From Ostreococcus lucimarinus (lineage: Eukaryota): a stretch of DNA of 64,000 nucleotides. A model generated the notes under the pieces. That model was not told the DNA's origin and made no database searches. It was given only the letters and a program-made list of their open reading frames with translations. A program made the translations under genes and the position numbers. The first letter of the stretch is position 1. Every line of letters starts with the position of its first letter. This document shows positions 7,859-32,997 of this stretch, in pieces. Location of the stretch: NCBI GenBank assembly GCA_000092065.1, contig CP000585.1, one strand, 5' to 3'.

Positions 7859-9580
7859 GTGGACGTCGAACGACGCGCGGCGACGATGCGCGCCAATGTC
7901 GTGGGGTGCGAGCGTCCAGCGGCGCGCGCGCGCGTCGCGACGGCGCCGCGAACGTCGCCGCGTCCCTCGCCGCGGTCGTTCGTCGCGACGGTTTCGCGAC
8001 GCGTGACGCTCGGTGCGACGACGAAATCGCGCGTTGAGAGCGCGGAAGCGCGCGCATGCGTCGCGCGCGGCGCGTGGTGCGCGCGACGCGCGGCAGGAGC
8101 GATGGAGATGGCGGGAGACGCGAGCGAAGGCGCGGCGAGAGGGGACGCGGGCGCGGCGTGGCTGAGCGAGGACGCGACGCCGCGGAACGACGCGCTGGAT
8201 AAGCTCATCATCAGTCTGTTCGTGCCGGCGATGCTAAACTTTTTGATAATCCCGCTCGTGGGCGCGGTGGATGTGTTTTGGGTCGGGCGATTGGAGGACG
8301 CGGTGGCGCTCGCGGCGCAGGGGGCGGCGAATCAGGTGTTTCAGAGCGCGTTTTGGATCATTTCCTTCATTCCGAGCGTCGTCGCGCCCGTGGTGGCGAA
8401 AGCGGCGGCGGGAGGTGATACGAACGAATTGTCGAAAAAGATTGGGGAGGGGATCTTCTGCGCCGCCGTGGTGGGGGCGATGGGGATGGTGTTGATGTAT
8501 ACGATGCAAGAGCGCGCGTTGGGCATCGTCGGCGTCGCCGCGGGGAGCGTGACGGCGCATCAAGCGGCGCCTTACGTTGGGTATCGCGCGCTGACGTTCA
8601 TTCCAGCGATCGTTTCCACGGTTGGTTTCGCCGCATTTCGTGGGACGCTTGACGTGATGACACCGATGAAGATTACGTTGGCGAGTCAAATGTTAAACGT
8701 CGTCCTCGACCCGCTCTTCATCTTCGGCGTCGGCACGTTCAAGGCGATGGGGGTCGCTGGCGCCGCAATCGCGACGTCGATTTCAGAGATTTTCTCTGCG
8801 GGTTTGTACACTACGTTACTCGTCAAGCGCAAGCTGGTCGATCTTAAGGATATGTTTAGGCCTCCGAGCGCGGCGGCGTTGGGGACGCTTCTCGTCGGCG
8901 GCGCCGGCGTGCAGCTTCGAGCAGTGGCGCAAAATATCACGTTCTTGGCAGTGATGCGCGCCATACTTACGATGGACTCCACCGGTACGGCGGCTGCGGC
9001 GCACACGATCTCGTCGCAGGTGTTTCAGCTCGGTGTTATCGCTATTTTGGCGTTGAGCACCATCGCCACCATTTTGATCCCCCAGCGCATGAACTCGATG
9101 GAAAAAGGTGGACCTCGCGAAGCCAAGCGCGTGGCCGATCGTTTGCTCGTATGGGGCGTTGTTATCGGTGTCATCTTGGCCGTCTTACAAGCGGGCGCGA
9201 TTCCGTTCCTCGGCGTCTTCTCCTCCTTGTCTGAAGTTCAAGAACAGGCCAAGATGCCCTGCATCATCGGCGCGTTGCTGCAGCCGCTCAACGGCATCGT
9301 TTTCGTCGGAGAGGGCTTGATGCAAGGCCATCAAGCTTTCCTTCGTCTTGCCGCGGGCATGTTCGTCTCCACGGGTGCCATGCTCGTCGCATTGAACATA
9401 TACGGCAACTCCCTCGCCGGCGTGTGGTTTTGCTTCACCGTATTCAACACGTTTAGATTGTTCTTCGGCTTGCGTCATCACTTCTTCGACGGCCCGCTCG
9501 CGCCGCGTCACATCGACGCCACGATCGCCAAGCTCGAAGTGGAGACCGCAGCCAAGGCTGCGGCCGCCAAGACGGATTAA
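7859..9580 (+). CDS. MATE (multidrug and toxic compound extrusion) family transporter, plastid-type with N-terminal targeting extension
   Basis: ATG at 7859. There are 12 predicted TM segments. The typical MATE N-lobe and C-lobe duplication is present (FWVGRL...AALAAQGAANQVF; later MPCIIGALLQPLNGIVFVGEGL). About 110 aa of Ala/Arg-rich presequence precede the transporter core. Confidence 0.85.
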   Translation: MDVERRAATMRANVVGCERPAARARVATAPRTSPRPSPRSFVATVSRRVTLGATTKSRVESAEARACVARGAWCARRAAGAMEMAGDASEGAARGDAGAAWLSEDATPRNDALDKLIISLFVPAMLNFLIIPLVGAVDVFWVGRLEDAVALAAQGAANQVFQSAFWIISFIPSVVAPVVAKAAAGGDTNELSKKIGEGIFCAAVVGAMGMVLMYTMQERALGIVGVAAGSVTAHQAAPYVGYRALTFIPAIVSTVGFAAFRGTLDVMTPMKITLASQMLNVVLDPLFIFGVGTFKAMGVAGAAIATSISEIFSAGLYTTLLVKRKLVDLKDMFRPPSAAALGTLLVGGAGVQLRAVAQNITFLAVMRAILTMDSTGTAAAAHTISSQVFQLGVIAILALSTIATILIPQRMNSMEKGGPREAKRVADRLLVWGVVIGVILAVLQAGAIPFLGVFSSLSEVQEQAKMPCIIGALLQPLNGIVFVGEGLMQGHQAFLRLAAGMFVSTGAMLVALNIYGNSLAGVWFCFTVFNTFRLFFGLRHHFFDGPLAPRHIDATIAKLEVETAAKAAAAKTD

Positions 9581-9678: not shown

Positions 9679-10373
9679 ATGGGGCTTCTCAGCATCATAA
9701 AAAAAGTACGCTCGGCGTCGCCCGCGCGCGCGTTTCGTCTCTCGCCTCGCGCGCGCGTCGCTCGCGACGCCGAACCGTCGAGTCGAGTTCGTTGTTCGTT
9801 GACCCGCGCTGACGCTGACTTCGTCCCCGCGCTCGCGAAACGCAGGTCAAGGCCAAGGAGCGCGAGCTCCGCGTCCTCATGGTCGGCCTCGATAACGCCG
9901 GGAAGACGACGATCGTGAAACGAGTGAACGGGGAACCGATCGATGAAATCTCCCCGACGCTCGGGTTCAACATCAAGACGATGACGTTCGGCGCGTACTC
10001 GTTGAACATCTGGGACGTAGGCGGACAGAAAACGCTGCGGTCGTATTGGAAAAACTATTACGAAGCGACGGATGCACTGATTTGGGTCGTGGACAGCGCG
10101 GACGGGCGACGGATGCGAGACTGCGCTCGCGAACTCGCGGGCGTGCTCGGCGAGGAGAAGCTCGCGGGGGCGAGCGTTTTGATTTTCGCGAATAAGCGCG
10201 ATATTCAAGGCGCCATGGACGTGGATGCTATGGTGGATGCGTTAGGGTTGAAGACGCTGGTGAATCGGCACTGGAACATCGTCGCGTGCTCGGCGGTGAC
10301 CGGCGAAGGGTTACTCGAGGGGTTCGACTGGCTCGTGAAAGACTGCGCGGATAGGATTTACATGTTCGATTAG
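9679..10373 (+). CDS. ARL2: ADP-ribosylation factor-like GTPase ARL2, two exons: join(9679..9705, 9846..10373), intron 9706..9845 (140 nt)
   Basis: Exon 1 encodes MGLLSIIKK and exon 2 [22 protein letters not shown]..., matching the ARL2 N-terminus [28 protein letters not shown]. The intron starts GTACGC, has a CTGAC branch point 20 nt before the acceptor, and ends CGCAG. All G1-G5 GTPase motifs are present ([20 protein letters not shown]). Confidence 0.9.
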
Positions 10374-10565
10374 CGGAGTTGGCGCGGCCATCGCGCGTCG
10401 CCAATATAGTCATAGATCGCTGTACAACAACCACATTCTTTCGGCACTCATCGCGCCGCGCGATGGCGAGAAGAATCGAAACCGCGGCGCGCCGAGCGCG
10501 ACAGCTCTCTCGCGTTTGAATCTCCCCGACCTCACAAATCCGCGCACGATCGCGCGCGCGCCGCG

Positions 10566-11141
10566 ATGCCGCCTAAAACCCCCAAAACCGTCCTCGACAA
10601 GGTTTTGCACGCCATCGAGACCCTGCAAACGCCCGGCGGATCGTCGCGCCAAGCCATCGCGAAATATCTCAAGGAACACTTCGACGCCGATAACGCTCCC
10701 GCACTCAAGCGCGCGCTCGCCAAGGGCGTCGCCGACGGCAAGCTCGAACAGAGCGGGCAATCTTTCTCGATTCCTGGCCTCGAATTCGACGCGCCCGAGG
10801 ACGAAAAGGTGAAGATTGAAGTCTTGGACGAGGGACGGTACGCGAGCGAGTCGGGACGGTGCGAGCGAGGCGACCAAGTGATGGTGGACTACGTCGGCAC
10901 GCTCGCGGCCACGGGCGAGGAGTTCGATCGCTCGGACGGACCGTTTCGGTTTAATCTCGGGTACGGCGAGGTGATCAAGGGATGGGAAGAGGGAGTGATC
11001 GGAATGCGGTGCGACGAGACGAGACGGTTGACGATTACGCCAAAGTTGGCGTACGGGAAACGAGGGAGTCCACCGGAAATCCCGCCGGACGCGACGTTGG
11101 TGTTCGAGGTGACGATGTTGCGGTTCGAGCCGGTGGGATGA
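10566..11141 (+). CDS. linker-histone (H15 winged-helix) domain fused to FKBP-type peptidyl-prolyl cis-trans isomerase
   Basis: N-terminal LDKVLHAIETLQTPGGSSRQAIAKYLKEHF...ALKRALAKGVADGKLEQSGQSFSI resembles the H1/H5 globular domain. The C-terminus GDQVMVDYVGTLAATGEEFDRSDGPFRFNLGYGEVIKGWEEGVIGMRCDETRRLTITPKLAYGKRGSPPEIPPDATLVFEVTML is a canonical FKBP domain. Confidence 0.85.
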   Translation: MPPKTPKTVLDKVLHAIETLQTPGGSSRQAIAKYLKEHFDADNAPALKRALAKGVADGKLEQSGQSFSIPGLEFDAPEDEKVKIEVLDEGRYASESGRCERGDQVMVDYVGTLAATGEEFDRSDGPFRFNLGYGEVIKGWEEGVIGMRCDETRRLTITPKLAYGKRGSPPEIPPDATLVFEVTMLRFEPVG

Positions 11142-11210
11142 GCGCGCGGTCGTCGGGGGTTCGATTACTCGAGGGTCGGCGTCGACGGGCGCGTCAGACG
11201 ACGCCTCGAC

Positions 11211-12293
11211 ATGCGCGCGGCGGCGACGGCTCGACCATCGACGGCTCGACCGTCGACGTCCGCGAGACGCGCGCGGCGAGCGCGAACGCGCGCCGTGCGT
11301 GATGAACGAATCGACTTCCTCTCCACGACGCTCATCGTCGACGACCTGGTGTTCGCGGACGGGACGACGCGGATGGCGGTGCTCGGCGGCGGTGGGCCGC
11401 AGACGCTGTTCGGCGCTGCGGTGACGTCCGACGGTGAGCTCACGCTCGGTCTCGTCGCGGGCGTGGGCGAGGGCGATTGCCCGGAGACGTGCGCGAGGTG
11501 GCTCGCGGACATTGGCGCGGAAGCGTTTTTGTTGACGTTGGGGACGTCGACGCCGCGGGCGTGGCAAATCACCGAACGCGACGGACGTCGCACGCAGGTG
11601 TGGAGATTGGACGCAAGCGATGCTTTGTACGCGATGTTGCGTCCGAAATACGCGATTTGGCCAGAGAAGTGTAAGCGTGCGAACGCGGTGCACTTTGGCT
11701 TGAATCCGTCGCGACCAGACGTCGAGCTCGTGCAAGCGCTTCGCGAAGGCGGGTGCGGCTTGATTTCGATCGAACCGTTCACGCACGCCGAGGCACCGCT
11801 ATCGAGGAAAGATTTGGAAAATCTCGTTTCCATGGGTGATGTTTTCTCGCCGAATGAGCGCGAGGCGAGGAGTTTCTTTGCGAAGGGCGACGGGATGTCG
11901 CCGAAGGATTTGATCAAAGCCATGCGAAAAGCTGGGGCGACGATATGTTGTTTGCGGCGCGGGTCGCGCGGTGCGATGGTGTATGATTCGCGAACGAACG
12001 AGGGTTACGAGTGCGAGGCGCTCTCTGCGAATGTCGTAGACGAAACTGGATGCGGCAACGCGTTTTGCGGCGCTTTCGCCGCCGCCTTGGCGCAGGGCGC
12101 CACGATACGCGACGGTCTTATCCGTGGAACGGTTGCGGCGAGCATCATGCTCGAACACGTTGGCGTCCCAAACGGCACATTGGTCGAGTATCGCGCCGAA
12201 GCAGCGAGGCGTGCGAACTTGATCAATCCCGTTGCGTTTAGTCTCGACGAAGAGGTTGCCGCGTTCGTCGACTTCGACGAGTACATCCCCTAG
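11211..12293 (+). CDS. pfkB-family carbohydrate kinase (ribokinase/fructokinase-like), probable plastid presequence
   Basis: N-terminal GGGG substrate-lid region (AVLGGGGPQT) and C-terminal DETGCGNAFCGAFAAALAQG matching the pfkB signature 2 (DTTGAGD). The first ~45 aa are Ala/Arg/Ser/Thr-rich. Confidence 0.8.
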   Translation: MRAAATARPSTARPSTSARRARRARTRAVRDERIDFLSTTLIVDDLVFADGTTRMAVLGGGGPQTLFGAAVTSDGELTLGLVAGVGEGDCPETCARWLADIGAEAFLLTLGTSTPRAWQITERDGRRTQVWRLDASDALYAMLRPKYAIWPEKCKRANAVHFGLNPSRPDVELVQALREGGCGLISIEPFTHAEAPLSRKDLENLVSMGDVFSPNEREARSFFAKGDGMSPKDLIKAMRKAGATICCLRRGSRGAMVYDSRTNEGYECEALSANVVDETGCGNAFCGAFAAALAQGATIRDGLIRGTVAASIMLEHVGVPNGTLVEYRAEAARRANLINPVAFSLDEEVAAFVDFDEYIP

Positions 12294-12333: not shown

Positions 12334-13325
12334 TTATTTACACTCCTCCTCCTCGTCTTCTGGGTCACCTCCGGCGTGATAGAACGGACTCGTCGTCAAC
12401 TTGCGGCGAGTGTCGACGACGACGAGCGGGCGGCACTCGCAGTTCTGCGGCCACGCGTGCATGTGTTCGCGCATATTTTCGCTCGGCACGTGTCCACCGA
12501 AGCAGTACTCCACCATTAGATTGCACATGAACGCCGAGTGTGTGACGACTATGATTGAATCTTCCTCGCGATCGAAACACCAGTCGAGAAACTTTCGCGC
12601 TCGCGCTCGCAGCACCGGTTCGGGCTCGCGATTCTCTCGGCCCGGCTTCCACAACACGTCGTCCTCGTCCTCGATGAACGAAAAGTCAACCCCAGGAAAC
12701 TCTCGTCGATATTCGCTGACGCTGCGCCGTCTATCGCACGGATTCCCGCCTATTTGCTCGCGCACCATTTCGAGCGCGACGAATTTCTTCCCCCCGCGCA
12801 ACCGCGCGTCGCACCTCAACGCCGGTCGTTCGCACGCCTTCATCGCCTCCGCCCTCGTCGCCTCCATCAGCACGCACCCATCGCCGTCGACCGATCCGAA
12901 CATCCCCGCCGCCGTCTCCATCGCTCGCGTCAACGGCGACACCACCACCAGTTCGCACGTCTCCAACATTTTCCCGTACGCGTCGCGCGACTCGAGCGTC
13001 TCTTTAAAATGTTCGCACTGTCGCCATCCTCGCGCCGTGAGTCTCGCGTCCGCGTACGCCTCGCTCCCGTACTCCTTCGGGTCTCGCTCGCCCGCTGCGC
13101 TCCCGGCGCTCGACGCGCGCCGTCAGTCGTTTTCCTTCGGCTTTCGTCACCGACCGTCTCTGATTTCAATCTTCTCGCGCGTCGCGTCCGTCGCGTCGCG
13201 CGCGTCGCACCTCGATTGTGAAACCCCTCGGCGTGTCGTATGAGATAGATCGTCTTCGTCGCGCCCGCCGGCGCGCAGTGCACGTCGCGCGCGTCCGCGC
13301 TCGGCGGATGGCGCACCCAGCCCAT
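12334..13325 (-). CDS. phosphoglycerate-mutase-like histidine phosphatase, two exons: join(13211..13325, 12334..13094), intron ~13095..13210 (116 nt, phase 1)
   Basis: Exon 1 ends ...KTIYLIRHAEGFHNRG (RHG catalytic motif) with donor GTGCGA. The intron has CTGACGG followed by GCGCAG. Exon 2 continues A-GERDPKEYGSEAYADARLTARGWRQCEHFKETLE...ELVVVSPLTRAMETAAGMFG. The spliced product aligns with plant PGAM-like proteins (HNVEGEKNHKAYLSEDLFDAHLTPLGWQQ...ELVVVSPLLRTLQTAVGTFG). Confidence 0.8.
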
Positions 13326-20353: not shown

Positions 20354-22816
20354 CTAGAGTTTGAGCTGGATGGCGACGCCGGCGTCATCGCGTCGCATGG
20401 TTTTCGTGCAGAGAGGATTTTCATCGAGCGCCGCGTCGGCGGCGGTGTGAACGATGATTTTCGCCTTGAGCGCGGACGCGGCGTTGGCCTTCTTTGCCAA
20501 AGCGATATCCGAGTCGACGTTTGACGGGACGTATTGCGCTACCATGACGGATTCAGTCCACGGCTTGAAGTTCAAGTCGACGTCGCCGTCATCGTAATCG
20601 ACGCGAAACGAATACGTGTGCGGATCGAAGGCGGTAATCGTGCCAGAGTAAAACGCGTTGTCCCGCTGCCACAGCACCACTATCCTCTGGCCTACGGCTT
20701 TGTCCTTGCGAAGCGCTAGTGTGGCGCCGATTTGACCGTGTCTCGCGAGTTCTATGATCTTCATCTGTGCGCACTTTGATTTCATCTTAGAACGACCAGC
20801 CGCGAGCTCCGACTCCGTGCCGGACGAACGCCGCGATCTCGTCTGCGGTTTGCTATCGGCCATAGCCTTGTGCGCTTCGGTGACGCACACGTCACATTCG
20901 TAACATGGCGATGGATCGGTGAAGAGATGTGCGTTGTTACGCTGCACGATTGGGTTGACGGGAGCCTCTAAATTCCTCGCATTGCACCACGCCCGTGCCG
21001 ACTCGACTGACTGCGTAAATTTCGCCTTTGAAGAAAACACAGGTTGTTTCATCGCTTCGCCGTAAAATTTGTCGAACGGATAAACTTCCGACGCTTTAAC
21101 CCATGCGAAGGATCTGCGATCGTCGAAAAAGATCACTAAACGATGATCCTCGGTGAACTTGGGGCTGAAAGCTGCAACACGTGCGCCCTCAGGGATAACG
21201 GCGTGATCCCGAAGCGGATGGAGCGCGACGCATGGCCAGTACATGGTCTTTCCTCGCACAGCTCCTTTCCATTTCACCCACGAGCACTCGCCGTGTGTCG
21301 TCATGCCATGTTCGTCTAAGTCGTTTTCGTTGTTTTCGTCTCGATGTCTCTTTTCCTTTGCAGCCTCTGTTTCTTCGCTCTCCCCCTCGTCTTCATCCGA
21401 ATCGTCGTCGTACTCATTGGCAGCTTGTTCGTCGTCTTCGGCGTCAATGTCTTCTAAAATGTCAATCTTAGACTTCTTTGATGGCGACGGCAGGGTCACT
21501 TGTGTCGAGTCACGCTTGACGTCTAACGCCGCGAGAATCGTCGAGTCAATGTTCTCGTGCGCGAGCTCGAGTCTCCGCAAGTAGCCTTCTCGAAGTTCGT
21601 ACCGCACGGGTTTGTTCTTTGTGAATTCAAGAAAATCGCCGAGCGGTGTGAAACCGCGAATGAGTGGAAACTCTGAAACTTCGTTCGGCGCGCGTTGTCG
21701 ACCTGTCCATTTCGGATCGCCGTTCACGTTGAGCATGTTGTAAGCGGCGAGCGGCCATGCCTTTGAAGATCGATCGCGCGTCGCTGGTCCCGGACACGGC
21801 TTTTCGAATGGCGTCGCCAGCGCATCGTAGGTAAATTTCACGTTGTACGGGCATTTCAACTGCTCGCCAAGCCACCGGCTTTGTGGGACGCTGCACGCCA
21901 GACCTAAGAGACTAAATCTTTTCATCGTTTGTAAATCCGTGTCGAACACCGGCGCTCGTTCGTTGGGACGCATGAGCGGATAGCAGGGTTCCGTATAACC
22001 CGGAGGAAATCCCATCAATCGTTCGGCGTCTTCTATCGCCAACATTGACAACTCAGCCTTTTGCTTTCCGATTTGGGTCGCGACACATGTACGACGTCCG
22101 TTGCTCGTCGTGAAGCAGTGCATGATATCGCAACACGGCGCTCGACGCTTCTCCCCGAGATCTATCGACGCCGAAAACATCTTTGTCGGTACTCGCGGTG
22201 GAGTGATGAAGCACTCGTAACACTCGTTGTTCATTCCCAGCTGGACGCACTCTCCCGAACACATCGCGCTCTGCGACAATAACACGTCTCGGGGATCACC
22301 GTGCAAAGATGCGACGACGAAAACGCGTCGTCGCTTATGAGGCGTCCCAAAGGACAAAAGATCGACGACGCGATACGCCCATCTGTATCCGAGATTTTCC
22401 AATTCATTGACTACGTAATCGATCGCCGGTCTCTGTTCGCCGTCGCTGTGCCACTTCAACAACCCGACGACGTTCTCGAGCAACAGCCACGGCACCCGTC
22501 TCGCCTCGAGCAAGCGAAACACGTGCGAGACGGAACGCGTGGCGCCGCCGAGCTCGAGTCCGGGTCGCTTGAGATTCTCGCAGCTGCAGTCGTTGCACGG
22601 AAACCCAGCGACGACGCAGTCGATGTTTTCGAGCATGAACGGGAGCACCTCCGCCACGTCATTGAGCAGCGCGACGCCCGGAAAGCGCGCCGAGAGGACT
22701 TGCTTGCAGTGGGCGTCGCGCTCTACCATGAGCTCTATGCGGTGGCCGGCTTGCTGGAGACCGAGATCGAGGCCTCCGACTCCGGAGAATAGGGACGCCA
22801 CGCGAAGACTCACCAT
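20354..22816 (-). CDS. DNA (cytosine-5)-methyltransferase with C-terminal PWWP-like and Tudor/Agenet-like reader domains
   Basis: ATG at 22816. Motif I LFSGVGGLDLGL, motif IV GFPCNDCS (Pro-Cys catalytic), motif VI ENV, and motifs IX/X are present. A target-recognition region with a Cys cluster follows, then an acidic linker (DAEDDEQAANEYDDDSDEDEGESEE). GKTMYWPCVALHP...FAWVKASEVYPFD is a PWWP-type aromatic cage. The C-terminus has a Tudor-like beta-barrel (GQRIVVLWQRDNAFYSGTITAFDPHTYSFRVDYDDGDV). Confidence 0.85.
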   Translation of the reverse strand: MVSLRVASLFSGVGGLDLGLQQAGHRIELMVERDAHCKQVLSARFPGVALLNDVAEVLPFMLENIDCVVAGFPCNDCSCENLKRPGLELGGATRSVSHVFRLLEARRVPWLLLENVVGLLKWHSDGEQRPAIDYVVNELENLGYRWAYRVVDLLSFGTPHKRRRVFVVASLHGDPRDVLLSQSAMCSGECVQLGMNNECYECFITPPRVPTKMFSASIDLGEKRRAPCCDIMHCFTTSNGRRTCVATQIGKQKAELSMLAIEDAERLMGFPPGYTEPCYPLMRPNERAPVFDTDLQTMKRFSLLGLACSVPQSRWLGEQLKCPYNVKFTYDALATPFEKPCPGPATRDRSSKAWPLAAYNMLNVNGDPKWTGRQRAPNEVSEFPLIRGFTPLGDFLEFTKNKPVRYELREGYLRRLELAHENIDSTILAALDVKRDSTQVTLPSPSKKSKIDILEDIDAEDDEQAANEYDDDSDEDEGESEETEAAKEKRHRDENNENDLDEHGMTTHGECSWVKWKGAVRGKTMYWPCVALHPLRDHAVIPEGARVAAFSPKFTEDHRLVIFFDDRRSFAWVKASEVYPFDKFYGEAMKQPVFSSKAKFTQSVESARAWCNARNLEAPVNPIVQRNNAHLFTDPSPCYECDVCVTEAHKAMADSKPQTRSRRSSGTESELAAGRSKMKSKCAQMKIIELARHGQIGATLALRKDKAVGQRIVVLWQRDNAFYSGTITAFDPHTYSFRVDYDDGDVDLNFKPWTESVMVAQYVPSNVDSDIALAKKANAASALKAKIIVHTAADAALDENPLCTKTMRRDDAGVAIQLKL

Positions 22817-28299: not shown

Positions 28300-31200
28300 C
28301 TACTTCTTGGCTTTGGCGAGCTGAACGCCTTCCATTTCGTCTTCGACGTCTGAAAAAAGCTCGCGTAAATTCTCGAGAGTCTCCTCGTCGGCGTCCCACA
28401 TTCCGCGACCGGCGGCTTCGAGCATGCGCTTGACGACGTTCCTGAACGCCTGCGGGTTCGATTTTCTCAGCTTGTCACGCATCTCTTCGTCTTCGACGTA
28501 GGTTTCGTGCGCGCCGTCGTACACCCAGTTCTCGGCGAACCCGCTCGTGGCGCCCCAGCCCACGAGCGCGGTCATGCGTTGGGAAATTTCGTACGCACCG
28601 CCCGATCCTTGGTCCGCCATCGCGGTCGCCCATCGCGGGTTGAGTAGTTTCGTGCGGTACTCCATGCGAAGCGTCTCGTCGAGATCTTTCGGGGTGACGT
28701 CTTTACCGAAAGTCTCGACGATGGAGCACGCGACGTCGGGATTTTTCACGCCCGCGTCTTCCTTCGCGGCCTTGGCTGCGGCGACGAGCGCGCCCGTGTT
28801 GGCGTAGTACTCTTGGATGTCGGTCAGACCGTACTCTACAGAATCGATTTCCTGAACCACGCGCTCGGTGGTGCGTAAGAGCGATTGTAAAACTTCTGGT
28901 CGCGCGGTGCCGCGTTCGTCGCCTTTGCCGTACGAGTACGCGTTTCTCGACGCCCACGTATCTCCAAGCTCGCGAGAGTCCTCCCATCCACTCGTTCCGA
29001 CGCGTTCGTTCACCATGGAACCGTAGTCTCCGGGAGGGTTGCTGAACAAGCGTGCGGTGGTGTTCTCGATCCCCTCGCTTTGCATCTCTCTCGAGTGTTT
29101 GCGAATGAAGTTCATCTCAATCGGCTCGTCCGCCTCAGCCGCTCGAACGAAGAGGTCATCCAACAAACCAACGACGCTTGCAAAGCTGTCCCGGAAAATG
29201 CCAGACATGTTACACAAAACATCGACGCGCGGACGCCCATTCATCTCGCTGAGAGGAATCAGTTCGTATCGCACGACGCGACCGGTGCCTTCTTTCACCG
29301 CTCGAGCGCCGACGAGTTGCAAAACTATGCCGACGCTCTCTCCTTTCGTTTTGATCGCGTCGAGTCCCCACAAATTTACGCTGACTGATTCTGGATACGC
29401 ACCGTCGTTTGCGTCTTGATGTTGTTTCAGAATGGCATCCGCCACTGCGGCGCCGCGCGTGGCGGCGGCGGCCGATGGCATGCGGTACGGATCGAGTGCG
29501 TGAATGTTCCTTCCGGTTGGAAGGACTCCTTTACCGTCGCGCAACAAATCACCACCCACTGCCGGAGGCACCCATTCGCCGTCCAGGGCTCGATGCATAC
29601 CCGTGATCTCTTCTGTGTTCATCGAGAGCAGATCACGAATCTCGATCGCTTCCGTGACCTTGTCGCTGACAGTCGCCGTAGCGCCTCCGCTTTGCAGCGC
29701 GTCTTGCGCGCTGACGGGCACGGATAGGTTGAACGTTTGCTCGAGCCTAGCTTTGACCGCGTCCAGTGATTCGTTTGGATCAGCCTTGACAATTTCATCG
29801 ATCAGGCCCGCTTCGATATCACCGTCAAAGTACGCGCTAAGATACTGTGTCATTGACTCGCGCGTCGGCGCGGTGCCGAGCGAATGCAAGCCTTCGCTGA
29901 AGAGTCGATTTTCCAGAACGCCAAGGTACGTGTAGAGCTCGCTGGCATACGCATCGAAGTCTTTCTGAGAGAGAGACTCCGCCATTTCCGGCGTCATGCG
30001 AACATGCTCGCTCGTTTGTGCGTCGACGTAAGGGCAGTCGCTGTCTAATCCAGCCGCAGTCACCATGTCAAAGATGGACGTGCGCAAAGCGCTGTTCTCG
30101 TCGGGATTTTCCCTATACTCGTTCAAAATTTCACGCAACTGCGCGGTTTGCTTGTACAAGCCGGCGCGTCCGTACGGTGGCACGTTGTGCGAAATGATGA
30201 CTCCGTATCCGCGTCGCTTCGCGATGATGCTTTCACTAGGATTGTTCGCGGCGTATACGTACACATTCGGCATCGCGCCCAACAACTGTTCGCTCCACGA
30301 CAAGCTCGTGTTCCCGAGCGGCGAACCCGGGAGCCACTCGACGGTACCATGCATGCCGAAGTGAACGATCGCGTTCGCCTTGAACTCGTTTTGAAGCCAT
30401 TTGTAATACGCGGCGTACTGCGGATGCGGCGTGAGATCGCGCTCAAACAACAATCGCATCGGATCGCCCTCCACGCCGAGCGCAGGTTGAATGCCGATGA
30501 AGACGTTACCAAGCTGGAGACCAGTGACGACGCTCCCTTTGCCTGGCGCAGTCGCAAGTCCGATGTAATTTTCGAGCGGTCCCCACGCCGCTTCCATCTT
30601 TTTTACGAGTACGTCGGGTTCTGGTAAGTATGGAATCGGTCCCCACTCCGTCGGTCCCCACTCCTTTGGAAACGCGAGCCACTTCTTCAGCTGCGCCGGC
30701 GTCACGTTCGCACCCGCAACCGTGACTCCAGGGAGCTCACCGCCTTTCGCCATGTCGCTCACCGCGTTCACCGCTCCATCGTAACCAGCCATGATTGTGG
30801 CGTTTTCTTCCAACGTACGCAAAGCTTTGACGATGGACTCGCCCGTGGGGAGCTCGTCGGCGTCGCCGAGGTAGTACCCTTCAGCTTTGAGCGACTGTAA
30901 CATGTTTTCTAAAGAATTCGGCACGTTTAGTAACGCCGCCGTACCCGTGGCACCGACGCCCGGGGGGAATCCGTACATCATCACTGCGATTTTGCGCTCA
31001 TCTCGCTTGGTTTTGCGTAAACTGTGCCATTGCTTCAGACGATTTGAAAGCGCAAAGACGCGCTCGCGAGTGAGGTAAATGTTGTCGCCGCACAACCCAC
31101 CGAGCGCGACCGTGTCGATCGCGCCGTCAAGTTCTGGCAACGCGTAGAGAATTGTACTTTGTAAACCACCAACGCCACTTCGAACCCAGGAAGCGATGTC

Positions 31201-32997
31201 TTGAATCAACAACGGCGCGGCGACGAAGTACGGAATGTTCTTCGCTCCCAAGATACCTTGCGCAACTTCAGCCTGCCGACCCGCCTCCATACTTCCCGCG
31301 GGGCCGCCGACGAGAGGAAATCCGACCGTGCTAACCACGGCGTCTACAACTGTGGCGTCTTGCTTCAAAGAATCGACCTCTACGACGCCTTCAGCGCGTC
31401 TTTGTTGTTCGTATTCAGACGTCAGCATGTCGCGCACAATGGTGTGCGCCTCGACGCCGTTGATGAAAATTGGAATCGGCAGAACGCCGGAGTCTTCGAA
31501 TGATTCGACTAAATCCGCAAGATATGGCTGCTTCGTGATGACGTGCTTACGGTAAAGAAGCATAGCCACGCGCGGGGCACCCGCTGGAACTTTGTGGGAA
31601 CGCGTCCGAGCGTGCCAATCAAGGTAGGACGCGATCGTCTCGAAGTACGGCATCTTTTCTCGCTCGCGTTGCGGATGATAGAGACCCAGCGCCGGAGTTT
31701 CCACGGGAGGTTTTGGCGCGCCAGAGACACCGAAGATCCGTTCTATGAACGATTTCGGCTTGTTCTCGTCACCGGGCGGGGCCAAGTACTCTGACGCAAG
31801 ATACGCGAACGCTTCTTCAACGTTTTCTTTGCCGCCTTGGTTCCAGTACGCGTACACCGTGAGCCAATTCTTCAGATCACGCGCCTTATCCCCGGGAACA
31901 AACTTCAAAAGTTGTGGGCCGATCTTCAAGAACGACAAGTAGCCGACGAGCTTGTCCTCCTCCTTGCCGCTTCCAAACTTGGCGAGCACGGCTTTCACTG
32001 CCGGCGGCGGTCCCGCCTTTTGCCCGCTCGGTGCCGCCATTTGGAAAGAACCGACGGATGTGCAGCTCATGAGCTCGAGGGCGGACTCGAACACAAATCG
32101 CAAGGGAATATCTGCGATGCGCGCGCGCAACCACTCGACTTGATCGTAATCGAACAACAACGACCCGAAGAAGACATCCGCGCCGTCGAGCGCGGCTTCC
32201 AACTCCTCTCGTCTTCCCTCGATATCGCGATCGCTAAACACTAACAAATCAACGTGAGGGTATCGTTTCTTCAAATCTCGCGCCGACGCCTTGTACAGCG
32301 CGACGTTAAAACTCTCGAATCCACTCAACAAAACAATCTTCCGCGCGCCCTCGCGCGTCTCGGGAACCGCGGACGCCTTCATCGGCGGCGCGCTCAAAAA
32401 CCCCACCCCACCGCGTTTCGCCACCGCCAGCGCGTTCTCCGCCTCCGCCAACGCATCTCGAGCTCGATCTCGCCGCGCTTTTATCGAGTGCACGCTCTTC
32501 TGAAACGTCAACCACTTCGCCCCGTCCTTCTCCGCCTCCCGCAGCAGCGCCGTCGCCGCCTTCGGTTCGCGCGCGTTCAGCTCTCGAAATCCAATCTCCG
32601 TGCCCGCCTCGTCCCCGAGCGCGCGCTCCTCGCCGTCCTCGCCGTCCACTCGCGGCTTCATCGTTCCGAACGCGTCGCGATACGCGCCATCGAGCGCGCT
32701 CGTGAGCGCGTCGACGTCGCGCGTCAGCGCCTCCACTCTGGCTCGGCGCTCGGCGACGTCATCGTCCTCTCGCCGCGCGCCCTCCGCCGCCGCCGTCGCG
32801 AGGACGTCGTCGGCGTAGCGCTCGGCGGCGCTCGACAGGGGCTTCGCGTCGACGCCCTCGCCGCGGGCGACGCGCGCGGCGGCCGTCGCGCGACGCGCGC
32901 GCGACGTCGACGACGCGCGGCGACCGAGTCGACCGCGCGACGCCGCGGACGCGCGCGGCGGCGCGGACGCGCGCGGCGCGAGGCGCGGACCGCGCAT
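28300..32997 (-). CDS. CHLH: magnesium chelatase subunit H (CHLH/GUN5; CobN/Mg-chelatase family) with unusually long N-terminal extension
   Basis: About 1330 aa align along the CobN/CHLH family. These include the N-terminal domain (KIVLLSGFESFNVALYK...VFFGSLLFDYDQVEWL), the central porphyrin-binding region and the conserved C-terminus (...NWVYDGAHETYVEDEEMRDKLRKSNPQAF). The ORF adds ~220 aa before the conserved start: an Arg/Ala/Ser-rich presequence and a predicted coiled-coil segment. Confidence 0.92.
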   Translation of the reverse strand: MRGPRLAPRASAPPRASAASRGRLGRRASSTSRARRATAAARVARGEGVDAKPLSSAAERYADDVLATAAAEGARREDDDVAERRARVEALTRDVDALTSALDGAYRDAFGTMKPRVDGEDGEERALGDEAGTEIGFRELNAREPKAATALLREAEKDGAKWLTFQKSVHSIKARRDRARDALAEAENALAVAKRGGVGFLSAPPMKASAVPETREGARKIVLLSGFESFNVALYKASARDLKKRYPHVDLLVFSDRDIEGRREELEAALDGADVFFGSLLFDYDQVEWLRARIADIPLRFVFESALELMSCTSVGSFQMAAPSGQKAGPPPAVKAVLAKFGSGKEEDKLVGYLSFLKIGPQLLKFVPGDKARDLKNWLTVYAYWNQGGKENVEEAFAYLASEYLAPPGDENKPKSFIERIFGVSGAPKPPVETPALGLYHPQREREKMPYFETIASYLDWHARTRSHKVPAGAPRVAMLLYRKHVITKQPYLADLVESFEDSGVLPIPIFINGVEAHTIVRDMLTSEYEQQRRAEGVVEVDSLKQDATVVDAVVSTVGFPLVGGPAGSMEAGRQAEVAQGILGAKNIPYFVAAPLLIQDIASWVRSGVGGLQSTILYALPELDGAIDTVALGGLCGDNIYLTRERVFALSNRLKQWHSLRKTKRDERKIAVMMYGFPPGVGATGTAALLNVPNSLENMLQSLKAEGYYLGDADELPTGESIVKALRTLEENATIMAGYDGAVNAVSDMAKGGELPGVTVAGANVTPAQLKKWLAFPKEWGPTEWGPIPYLPEPDVLVKKMEAAWGPLENYIGLATAPGKGSVVTGLQLGNVFIGIQPALGVEGDPMRLLFERDLTPHPQYAAYYKWLQNEFKANAIVHFGMHGTVEWLPGSPLGNTSLSWSEQLLGAMPNVYVYAANNPSESIIAKRRGYGVIISHNVPPYGRAGLYKQTAQLREILNEYRENPDENSALRTSIFDMVTAAGLDSDCPYVDAQTSEHVRMTPEMAESLSQKDFDAYASELYTYLGVLENRLFSEGLHSLGTAPTRESMTQYLSAYFDGDIEAGLIDEIVKADPNESLDAVKARLEQTFNLSVPVSAQDALQSGGATATVSDKVTEAIEIRDLLSMNTEEITGMHRALDGEWVPPAVGGDLLRDGKGVLPTGRNIHALDPYRMPSAAAATRGAAVADAILKQHQDANDGAYPESVSVNLWGLDAIKTKGESVGIVLQLVGARAVKEGTGRVVRYELIPLSEMNGRPRVDVLCNMSGIFRDSFASVVGLLDDLFVRAAEADEPIEMNFIRKHSREMQSEGIENTTARLFSNPPGDYGSMVNERVGTSGWEDSRELGDTWASRNAYSYGKGDERGTARPEVLQSLLRTTERVVQEIDSVEYGLTDIQEYYANTGALVAAAKAAKEDAGVKNPDVACSIVETFGKDVTPKDLDETLRMEYRTKLLNPRWATAMADQGSGGAYEISQRMTALVGWGATSGFAENWVYDGAHETYVEDEEMRDKLRKSNPQAFRNVVKRMLEAAGRGMWDADEETLENLRELFSDVEDEMEGVQLAKAKK

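Follow-up and report, generated by a model that had tools for sequence, protein, structure and literature searches.

A conserved marine-algal protein family joining a linker-histone-type winged helix to an FKBP domain in Ostreococcus lucimarinus

We found that Ostreococcus lucimarinus encodes an H1-type winged helix (H15 domain) that is attached to an FKBP domain instead of a lysine-rich tail. The gene lies on contig CP000585.1, within the 64,000-nucleotide stretch of DNA that we analysed (the window), and encodes a two-domain protein of 191 amino acids (~21 kDa), here termed H15-FKBP. It belongs to a conserved family of prasinophyte-grade green algae, haptophytes and at least one diatom. With moderate confidence we propose that H15-FKBP is a small nuclear prolyl isomerase tethered to chromatin by its H15 domain. 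Our literature search, which left most subscription journals outside its reach, returned no paper on an H15-FKBP fusion and no experimental work on any member; as far as we found, the fusion is present in the databases yet undescribed and uncharacterised in the literature.

The reading frame of H15-FKBP is intron-less and complete (Table 1). Its ATG is the first possible start past the upstream in-frame stop, and there are no internal stops. The Linker_histone profile of Pfam (PF00538) matches residues 9-63 of the protein with E=7.1e-12 (45.8 bits versus a gathering cut-off of 22.4), and FKBP_C (PF00254) matches residues 99-184 with E=8.1e-30 (103.5 bits versus 21.1). These are the only Pfam domains in the protein, and an NCBIfam scan gave generic FKBP matches only, all of them sub-threshold. 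The original prediction, made from the letters of the DNA, was that an H15 domain is joined directly to an FKBP domain at this place; both Pfam profiles, each above its curated cut-off, bear this out, and so do the AF2 model and Foldseek. There is no hidden stop or intron between the domains, the reading frame being continuous at syntenic loci and in transcriptomes.

Table 1. Features of the H15-FKBP gene and its surroundings, in window positions
Feature	Position	Strand	Description	Basis
MatE transporter	7859..9580			
ARL2 GTPase	9679..10373	+	exons 9679..9705 + 9846..10373	184-aa NCBI model (P0143, ABO95982.1)
H15-FKBP CDS	10566..11141	+	191 codons + TGA, intron-less, complete	ORF list, sequence
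H15 winged helix, linker-histone H1/H5 type	10587..10778	+	aa 8-71	Pfam PF00538, PDB phmmer, AF2, Foldseek
Inter-domain linker	10779..10811	+	aa 72-82 (LEFDAPEDEKV), short, partly conserved	family alignment, AF2
FKBP domain	10812..11132	+		Pfam PF00254, FKBP12 identity, Foldseek, pocket residues
PfkB sugar/nucleoside kinase	11211..12293		360 aa	exact match ABO95984.1/XP_001417691.1
Histidine phosphatase (PhoE-like)	12334..12969			
PTM/DIR17-like Tudor-domain protein	20354..22816	-	820 aa	exact match ABO96223.1
Mg-chelatase subunit H	28300..32997		1565 aa	

We modelled the full-length protein with AF2 from an alignment of 58 family sequences (mean pLDDT 93.4, pTM 0.76). The model contains helices at residues 9-20, 28-39 and ~44-56, a short wing hairpin (61-63/66-68) and, from residue 83, the beta-sheet of the FKBP domain. 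When the N-terminal 80 residues were modelled alone (pLDDT 80.9), the top 16 Foldseek matches were almost only linker-histone globular domains (H1, GH5, H1.0 and Hho1p) together with the MORF WH domain, and the KAT6A WH domain appeared at rank 23. Among the top matches was H1 in a chromatosome (5nl0_Z; TM 0.70/0.77, rmsd 1.7 Å), and matches to linker-histone folds overall fell at TM 0.65-0.77 and rmsd 1.7-2 Å. Comparison of sequences led to the same proteins: a phmmer search of the PDB with these 80 residues found the H5/H1.0 globular domains at E=2e-4, and the window motif GGSSRQAIAKYLKEHF is nearly the same as GGSSRQSIQKYIKSHY of chicken H5. The N-terminal domain is, thus, recognized as H15 by its Pfam profile, by PDB sequences and by fold.

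What follows the winged helix differs from a linker histone. After residue 71 there is an 11-residue acidic linker and then the folded FKBP domain, and the lysine-rich disordered C-terminal tail is absent; neither such a tail nor an obvious NLS was seen when the 191-residue sequence was read by eye. Since no lysine-rich C-terminal tail follows the globular domain, we class H15-FKBP among proteins with an H15 domain rather than as a linker histone proper. The linker itself carries a conserved G71 followed by a P..E.V pattern in the family alignment, and residues 71-90 have pLDDT 91-96 in the full-length model.

We then compared the H15 domain with the basic residues through which GH5 contacts DNA (H25, K40, R42, R47, K52, K55, K59, K69, R73, R74, K85, R94 and K97), using a HMMER alignment to chicken GH5. 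The window protein keeps the equivalents of R47, K52, K55, K69 and R74 and has lost the other eight. Across the 58 family members Lys or Arg is found in 98% at R47, 100% at K52, 90% at K55 and 97% at K69. At the R73 and R74 equivalents a basic residue occurs in 62% and 52% of members, respectively; in the window these positions are A52 and K53, and the loss at R73 (A52) is shared by the Ostreococcus clade. Lys or Arg is rare at the K40 (28%), K85 (14%) and R94 (22%) equivalents, and is found in 0-2% of members at those of H25, R42, K59 and K97. Of the 13 contact basics, therefore, ~7 are missing family-wide, and the wing loop is shorter by 5 residues. The domain is nevertheless basic in 58/58 members (pI 9.5-10.5), with a median net charge of +7 versus +11 for GH5. 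O. lucimarinus has the least basic H15 domain of the family (+3), and its whole-protein pI is 5.0 versus a family median of 9.2. With the R47, K52, K55 and K69 equivalents kept and about half of the contacts lost, binding of DNA through helix 3 is plausible, whereas the three-contact on-dyad mode of H1/H5 is doubtful, above all in Ostreococcus, whose copy has, judged by these residues and charges, the weakest predicted DNA-binding signature of the family.

The FKBP domain shares 49% identity with human FKBP12 and matches FKBPs of the PDB with phmmer E-values down to 1e-32. Foldseek with the whole model returned mostly FKBPs (the AtFKBP53 FKBD at the top, FKBP14, FKBP12, PfFKBP35 and the FK1 domains of FKBP51/52), with TM versus target of 0.84-0.90 for FKBP53, FKBP12 and FKBP14. 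Identical residues occupy 11 of the 14 pocket positions of FKBP12 (Y26, F36, D37, F46, E54, V55, I56, W59, Y82, I91 and F99), and these 11 are invariant or nearly so across the 58 family members. R42 of FKBP12 is gone with a 3-residue deletion in the 40s loop, and H87 is replaced by S and I90 by E across the family. That the pocket is conserved speaks for a functional isomerase or, at the least, for a site that binds proline, and on these residues catalysis by the domain is likely. In charge the domain is acidic in the window (pI 4.7, net charge -6; family median pI 6.7). We could not justify placing it in any one of the known FKBP subfamilies, the scores for AtFKBP53, FKBP12, FKBP14, FKBP52 and FKBP35 being about tied. 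Two Ostreococcus-like lineages (L008 and L020) have Leu (EVIKGLEQG) or Phe (EVIKGFDQG) in place of W59, and L008 also has Glu in place of D37; some variation of the pocket thus occurs even within the genus-level clade.

The original prediction had left the phylogenetic distribution of the fusion to be established, and it turned out to be that of a widespread conserved family in marine algae. About 100 of the best 120 homologues contain both Pfam domains in ~180-190 residues, and orthologues from metagenomes are 67-76% identical over 97-100% of the length of the window protein. The gene order MatE-ARL2-H15FKBP-PfkB-HisPhos is kept on many independent contigs of at least three other Ostreococcus-like lineages (metagenome/Logan contigs and NCBI assembly GCA_014466335.1). 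Among these syntenic orthologues sequence identity is 70-78% in the H15 domain and 70-74% in the FKBP domain, so that the former is no less conserved than the latter. The same architecture was found, as complete transcripts or annotated proteins, in the green algae Micromonas pusilla, Pyramimonas sp., P. obovata, Cymbomonas tetramitiformis, Tetraselmis astigmatica and T. striata, in the haptophytes Pavlovales sp. CCMP2436, Diacronema lutheri, Haptolina ericina and Coccolithus braarudii, and in the diatom Epithemia clementina; complete two-domain reading frames are present in transcriptomes of Pyramimonas, Tetraselmis and Coccolithus. None of the named matches with both domains came from land plants, Chlamydomonas, animal genomes or fungi, which suggests a restriction to marine protist lineages. 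Matches also occur in transcriptomes of a choanoflagellate (Helgoeca nana) and a copepod (Neocalanus), and may be prey contamination.

A word-indexed search with the N-terminal 81 residues yielded one fragment only, and we used instead an exhaustive phmmer search of 1.84 billion representatives followed by a Pfam scan. The H15 part matched 187 proteins at E<=1e-3, and the best of them were members of the fusion family, that is, the H15 domains of the fusion are closest to each other. Among the best 149 of the 187, 146 had Linker_histone and 42 of these scanned proteins also FKBP_C; many of the others were fragments. We detected no relatives in viral contigs when these were scanned with the family alignment, and see no sign of a giant-virus origin.

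These observations bear on what has been published about Ostreococcus chromatin. According to Cai et al. [quoted passage not shown] Marine algae with linker-specific DNA methylation, O. lucimarinus included, are likewise said to be without the H1 winged helix (PMC5728721). The same study lists an O. lucimarinus H1 as a 339-bp gene on Chr_20, and Lyons and Zilberman describe this H1-like protein of Ostreococcus as tail-only and lysine-rich (PMC5728721). The published absence still holds for a canonical H1, though no longer for the H15 domain itself. The H15-FKBP gene, thus, qualifies statements on which readings of cryo-ET data from Ostreococcus chromatin, and of how linker-specific methylation evolved, have relied.

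How might the two domains work together? [quoted passage not shown] Docking would keep the FKBP domain, neutral to acidic in charge, no more than a few nanometres from basic substrates of chromatin that contain prolines. The leading candidate substrate would be the N-terminal tail of H3, as for yeast Fpr4, and another candidate is the tail-only H1-like protein of these algae. H15-FKBP would then be a functional analogue of FKBP25 and the NPL-FKBPs, with a linker-histone globular domain providing the targeting. Both folds, the 11 of 14 pocket residues, the conserved H15 basics, the equal constraint on the two domains, synteny and transcripts speak for this model; the lost GH5 basics, the short wing, the +3 charge of the H15 domain, the acidic FKBP domain, the missing obvious NLS and the changes at R42, H87 and I90 speak against it. 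With four conserved basics kept while half are lost and the wing is short, we regard tethering to chromatin as plausible and unproven. The original prediction had read the protein as a chromatin-tethered isomerase with histone tails or H1 as its targets, and this functional part of it has partial support.

The proposed mechanism has a close parallel in Fpr4. The FKBP domain of Fpr4 binds at the nucleosome entry/exit in a manner that depends on linker DNA and is in competition with H1, and it catalyses the isomerisation of H3-tail prolines (PMC5476585), and this entry/exit, H1-competing site is the one that a linker-histone globular domain would target. Like the NPL-FKBPs (Fpr3/Fpr4, S. pombe FKBP39 and Arabidopsis FKBP53), H15-FKBP would combine a chromatin-directed N-terminal module with a C-terminal FKBP domain, the tethering being our inference here. 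Unlike them, it has no nucleoplasmin-like pentamer domain and no acidic tracts. The original prediction had drawn this contrast with nuclear FKBPs that carry nucleoplasmin-like or acidic domains, and rightly so (PMC5476585); the N-terminus here folds as a winged helix. A further difference lies in the enzyme itself, as Fpr4 binds through basic patches on an FKBP domain of pI 10.2 (PMC5476585), whereas that of H15-FKBP is acidic to neutral (pI 4.7; family median 6.7), a charge like that of cytosolic FKBPs. Since the FKBP domain is not basic, targeting would come from the H15 domain rather than from the FKBP surface.

In organisation the closest known protein is FKBP25 (FKBP3), which is small and has an N-terminal helical domain that binds DNA and dsRNA in front of a C-terminal FKBP domain (PMC4824100, PMC5714180); its full-length structure, 2mph, is among our fold matches at rank 48. 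However, FKBP25 begins with a basic tilted helix bundle (BTHB), whereas the N-terminal domain of H15-FKBP is an H1/H5 winged helix by profile and by fold. In addition, the 40s loop of FKBP25 is long and basic and touches DNA, and in the H15-FKBP family it is this loop that bears the 3-residue deletion. The winged helix shares its fold and the signature GGSSRQAIxKYLK with H1/H5, Hho1p, the WH domains of KAT6A/KAT6B, plant GH1-HMGA and TRB/SMH. It differs from canonical H1/H5 in being followed by an enzyme instead of the lysine-rich C-terminal tail, in its shorter wing, in having about half of the contact basics and in its lower net charge.

We considered whether the fusion itself might be an artefact, that is, two adjacent genes, a hidden intron or an assembly chimera read as a single reading frame. 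The exact 191-residue sequence has no NCBI accession, and one metagenome scaffold (L001; ENA BPAM22-1...scaffold_13504) matches only 10896..11351 of the window, at 99.3%, and has other sequence upstream. This scaffold, however, is a lone 3.5-kb outlier. A continuous two-domain frame stands at the syntenic loci in several independent assemblies and at least three other lineages, ~100 of the best 120 homologues have both domains at ~180-190 residues, complete transcripts contain both, and the linker is conserved and modelled with confidence, so that an artefact is effectively refuted. We also looked at the scaffold as an alternative arrangement of the gene. It joins the sequence from mid-FKBP domain onward to an unrelated rhodanese gene, giving a 244-residue hybrid gene call (P0056), and is probably chimeric, because many syntenic contigs agree otherwise. 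The fused protein could, alternatively, act off chromatin, as a soluble general folding catalyst or chaperone in which the winged helix has lost nucleosome binding and serves as a module for protein interaction or solubility. The acidic O. lucimarinus protein (pI 5.0), the net charge of only +3 on its H15 domain, the loss of ~7/13 contact basics with a shortened wing, the lack of an obvious NLS or basic tail, and the JGI name 'FK506-binding protein 2' for relatives would all suit such a protein. On the other hand, the H15 residues conserved at 90-100% are the DNA-facing equivalents of R47, K52, K55 and K69, the domain is basic in every one of the 58 members of a family with a median whole-protein pI of 9.2, and every one of its closest structural matches is an H15 domain that binds DNA or nucleosomes. 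A 21-kDa protein, moreover, can enter the nucleus without an NLS. We, therefore, think a role away from chromatin unlikely.

Two further readings keep the protein on chromatin and tie it to the missing H1. H15-FKBP might be a structural, non-catalytic substitute for H1, with the H15 domain on the dyad and the FKBP domain taking over from the C-terminal tail in an architectural or interaction role. Such a role would fit the published lack of an H1 winged helix or linker histone in Ostreococcus (PMC5728721, PMC9871001, PMC6080658) and the ability of the Fpr4 FKBP domain to condense nucleosome arrays independently of catalysis (PMC5476585). The near-invariant pocket, however, argues for selection on ligand binding or catalysis; an FKBP domain of pI 4.7, as against 10.2 in Fpr4, cannot neutralise linker DNA; and Micromonas pusilla has a canonical H1 (PMC5728721) as well as the fusion, which is therefore not a simple replacement. 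We hold this substitution to be rather improbable. The other reading keeps catalysis and makes of the protein a 'catalytic linker histone': H1 would be split in Ostreococcus, with H15-FKBP as the putative sole carrier of an H1 globular domain beside the tail-only H1-like protein. Docked at the nucleosome dyad or linker, it would isomerise prolines of the H3 tail or of a proline-rich H1-like tail, and the arrangement would perhaps extend to other marine algae with very short, Dnmt5-methylated linkers. We offer a split H1 as a tentative idea of low probability; were it true, the published lack of an H1 winged helix in these algae would need correcting. A link between H15-FKBP and linker methylation by Dnmt5 is not claimed, as the two overlap in taxa only, and E. 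huxleyi and Aureococcus are absent from our named matches.

Histone proline isomerisation is among the least tractable of chromatin modifications. Its best-studied enzyme, yeast Fpr4, reaches the entry/exit site by a diffuse basic surface of the FKBP domain. A natural protein in which a genuine linker-histone globular domain accompanies an FKBP domain would testify independently, on evolutionary grounds, to FKBP action at this site, and the 21-kDa protein would be a compact reagent for testing such action. The H15-FKBP variant is new beside the known FKBPs that are targeted to chromatin or nucleic acids, and would complement the work on Fpr4 by a different route to the same place. Should the H15 domain have lost DNA binding, the family would illustrate how a fold domain of a histone can be recruited as a protein module, which is of lesser interest.

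The locus is compact. The window has 62% G+C and very high gene density, and spacers of 192 bp (ARL2 stop to H15-FKBP start) and 69 bp (H15-FKBP stop to PfkB start) separate the gene from its neighbours. ARL2 contains a single GT..AG intron of 140 nt (9706..9845), the plain reading frame 9879..10373 yielding only 164 residues; introns, thus, exist at the locus, though the H15-FKBP gene needs none. The PfkB and Tudor-domain products are identical to recorded proteins of strain CCE9901 of O. lucimarinus. We noted nothing unusual in the MatE, PfkB, histidine phosphatase, Tudor-domain and Mg-chelatase H genes. An antisense reading frame (10410..11786, minus strand; 458 residues, Arg/Pro-rich) spans the whole H15-FKBP gene and part of PfkB; we rejected it as a gene, as it is a typical spurious frame of DNA with 62% G+C.

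In the databases the exact 191-residue protein is recorded in Logan/ENA assemblies only (P0125), with no NCBI accession, and the flanking genes have ABO95982 and ABO95984 (UniProt A4RX38 and A4RX40). We infer that the public model of the gene differs from the 191-codon reading frame. Automatic naming calls the family proteins "peptidylprolyl isomerase", and JGI pipelines call relatives 'FK506-binding protein 2'. The 191-residue H15-FKBP and the 360-residue PfkB kinase fall in the same protein cluster at 90% identity, presumably through read-through gene calls over the 69-bp spacer, and it was because of this clustering that the window's own protein was missing from the first homologue search.

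Codon 158 (11037..11039, ACG) encodes Thr in the window (TITPKLAYG); in at least 90% of family members Pro takes its place (TIPPKLGYG). Pro is also found at this position in near-identical environmental sequences (P0008, and L001 at 99.3% DNA identity), and Thr158 could be a strain polymorphism or a sequencing difference. As the position corresponds to Ser77 of FKBP12, the change is probably harmless. Near relatives of the H15 domain outside this architecture include proteins with 3-5 or more tandem H15 domains (among P0209, 505 residues; P0221, 746 residues; P0290, P0298 and P0227), and a 216-residue protein in which an H15 domain of the same subtype accompanies a BRCT domain (Pfam BRCT).
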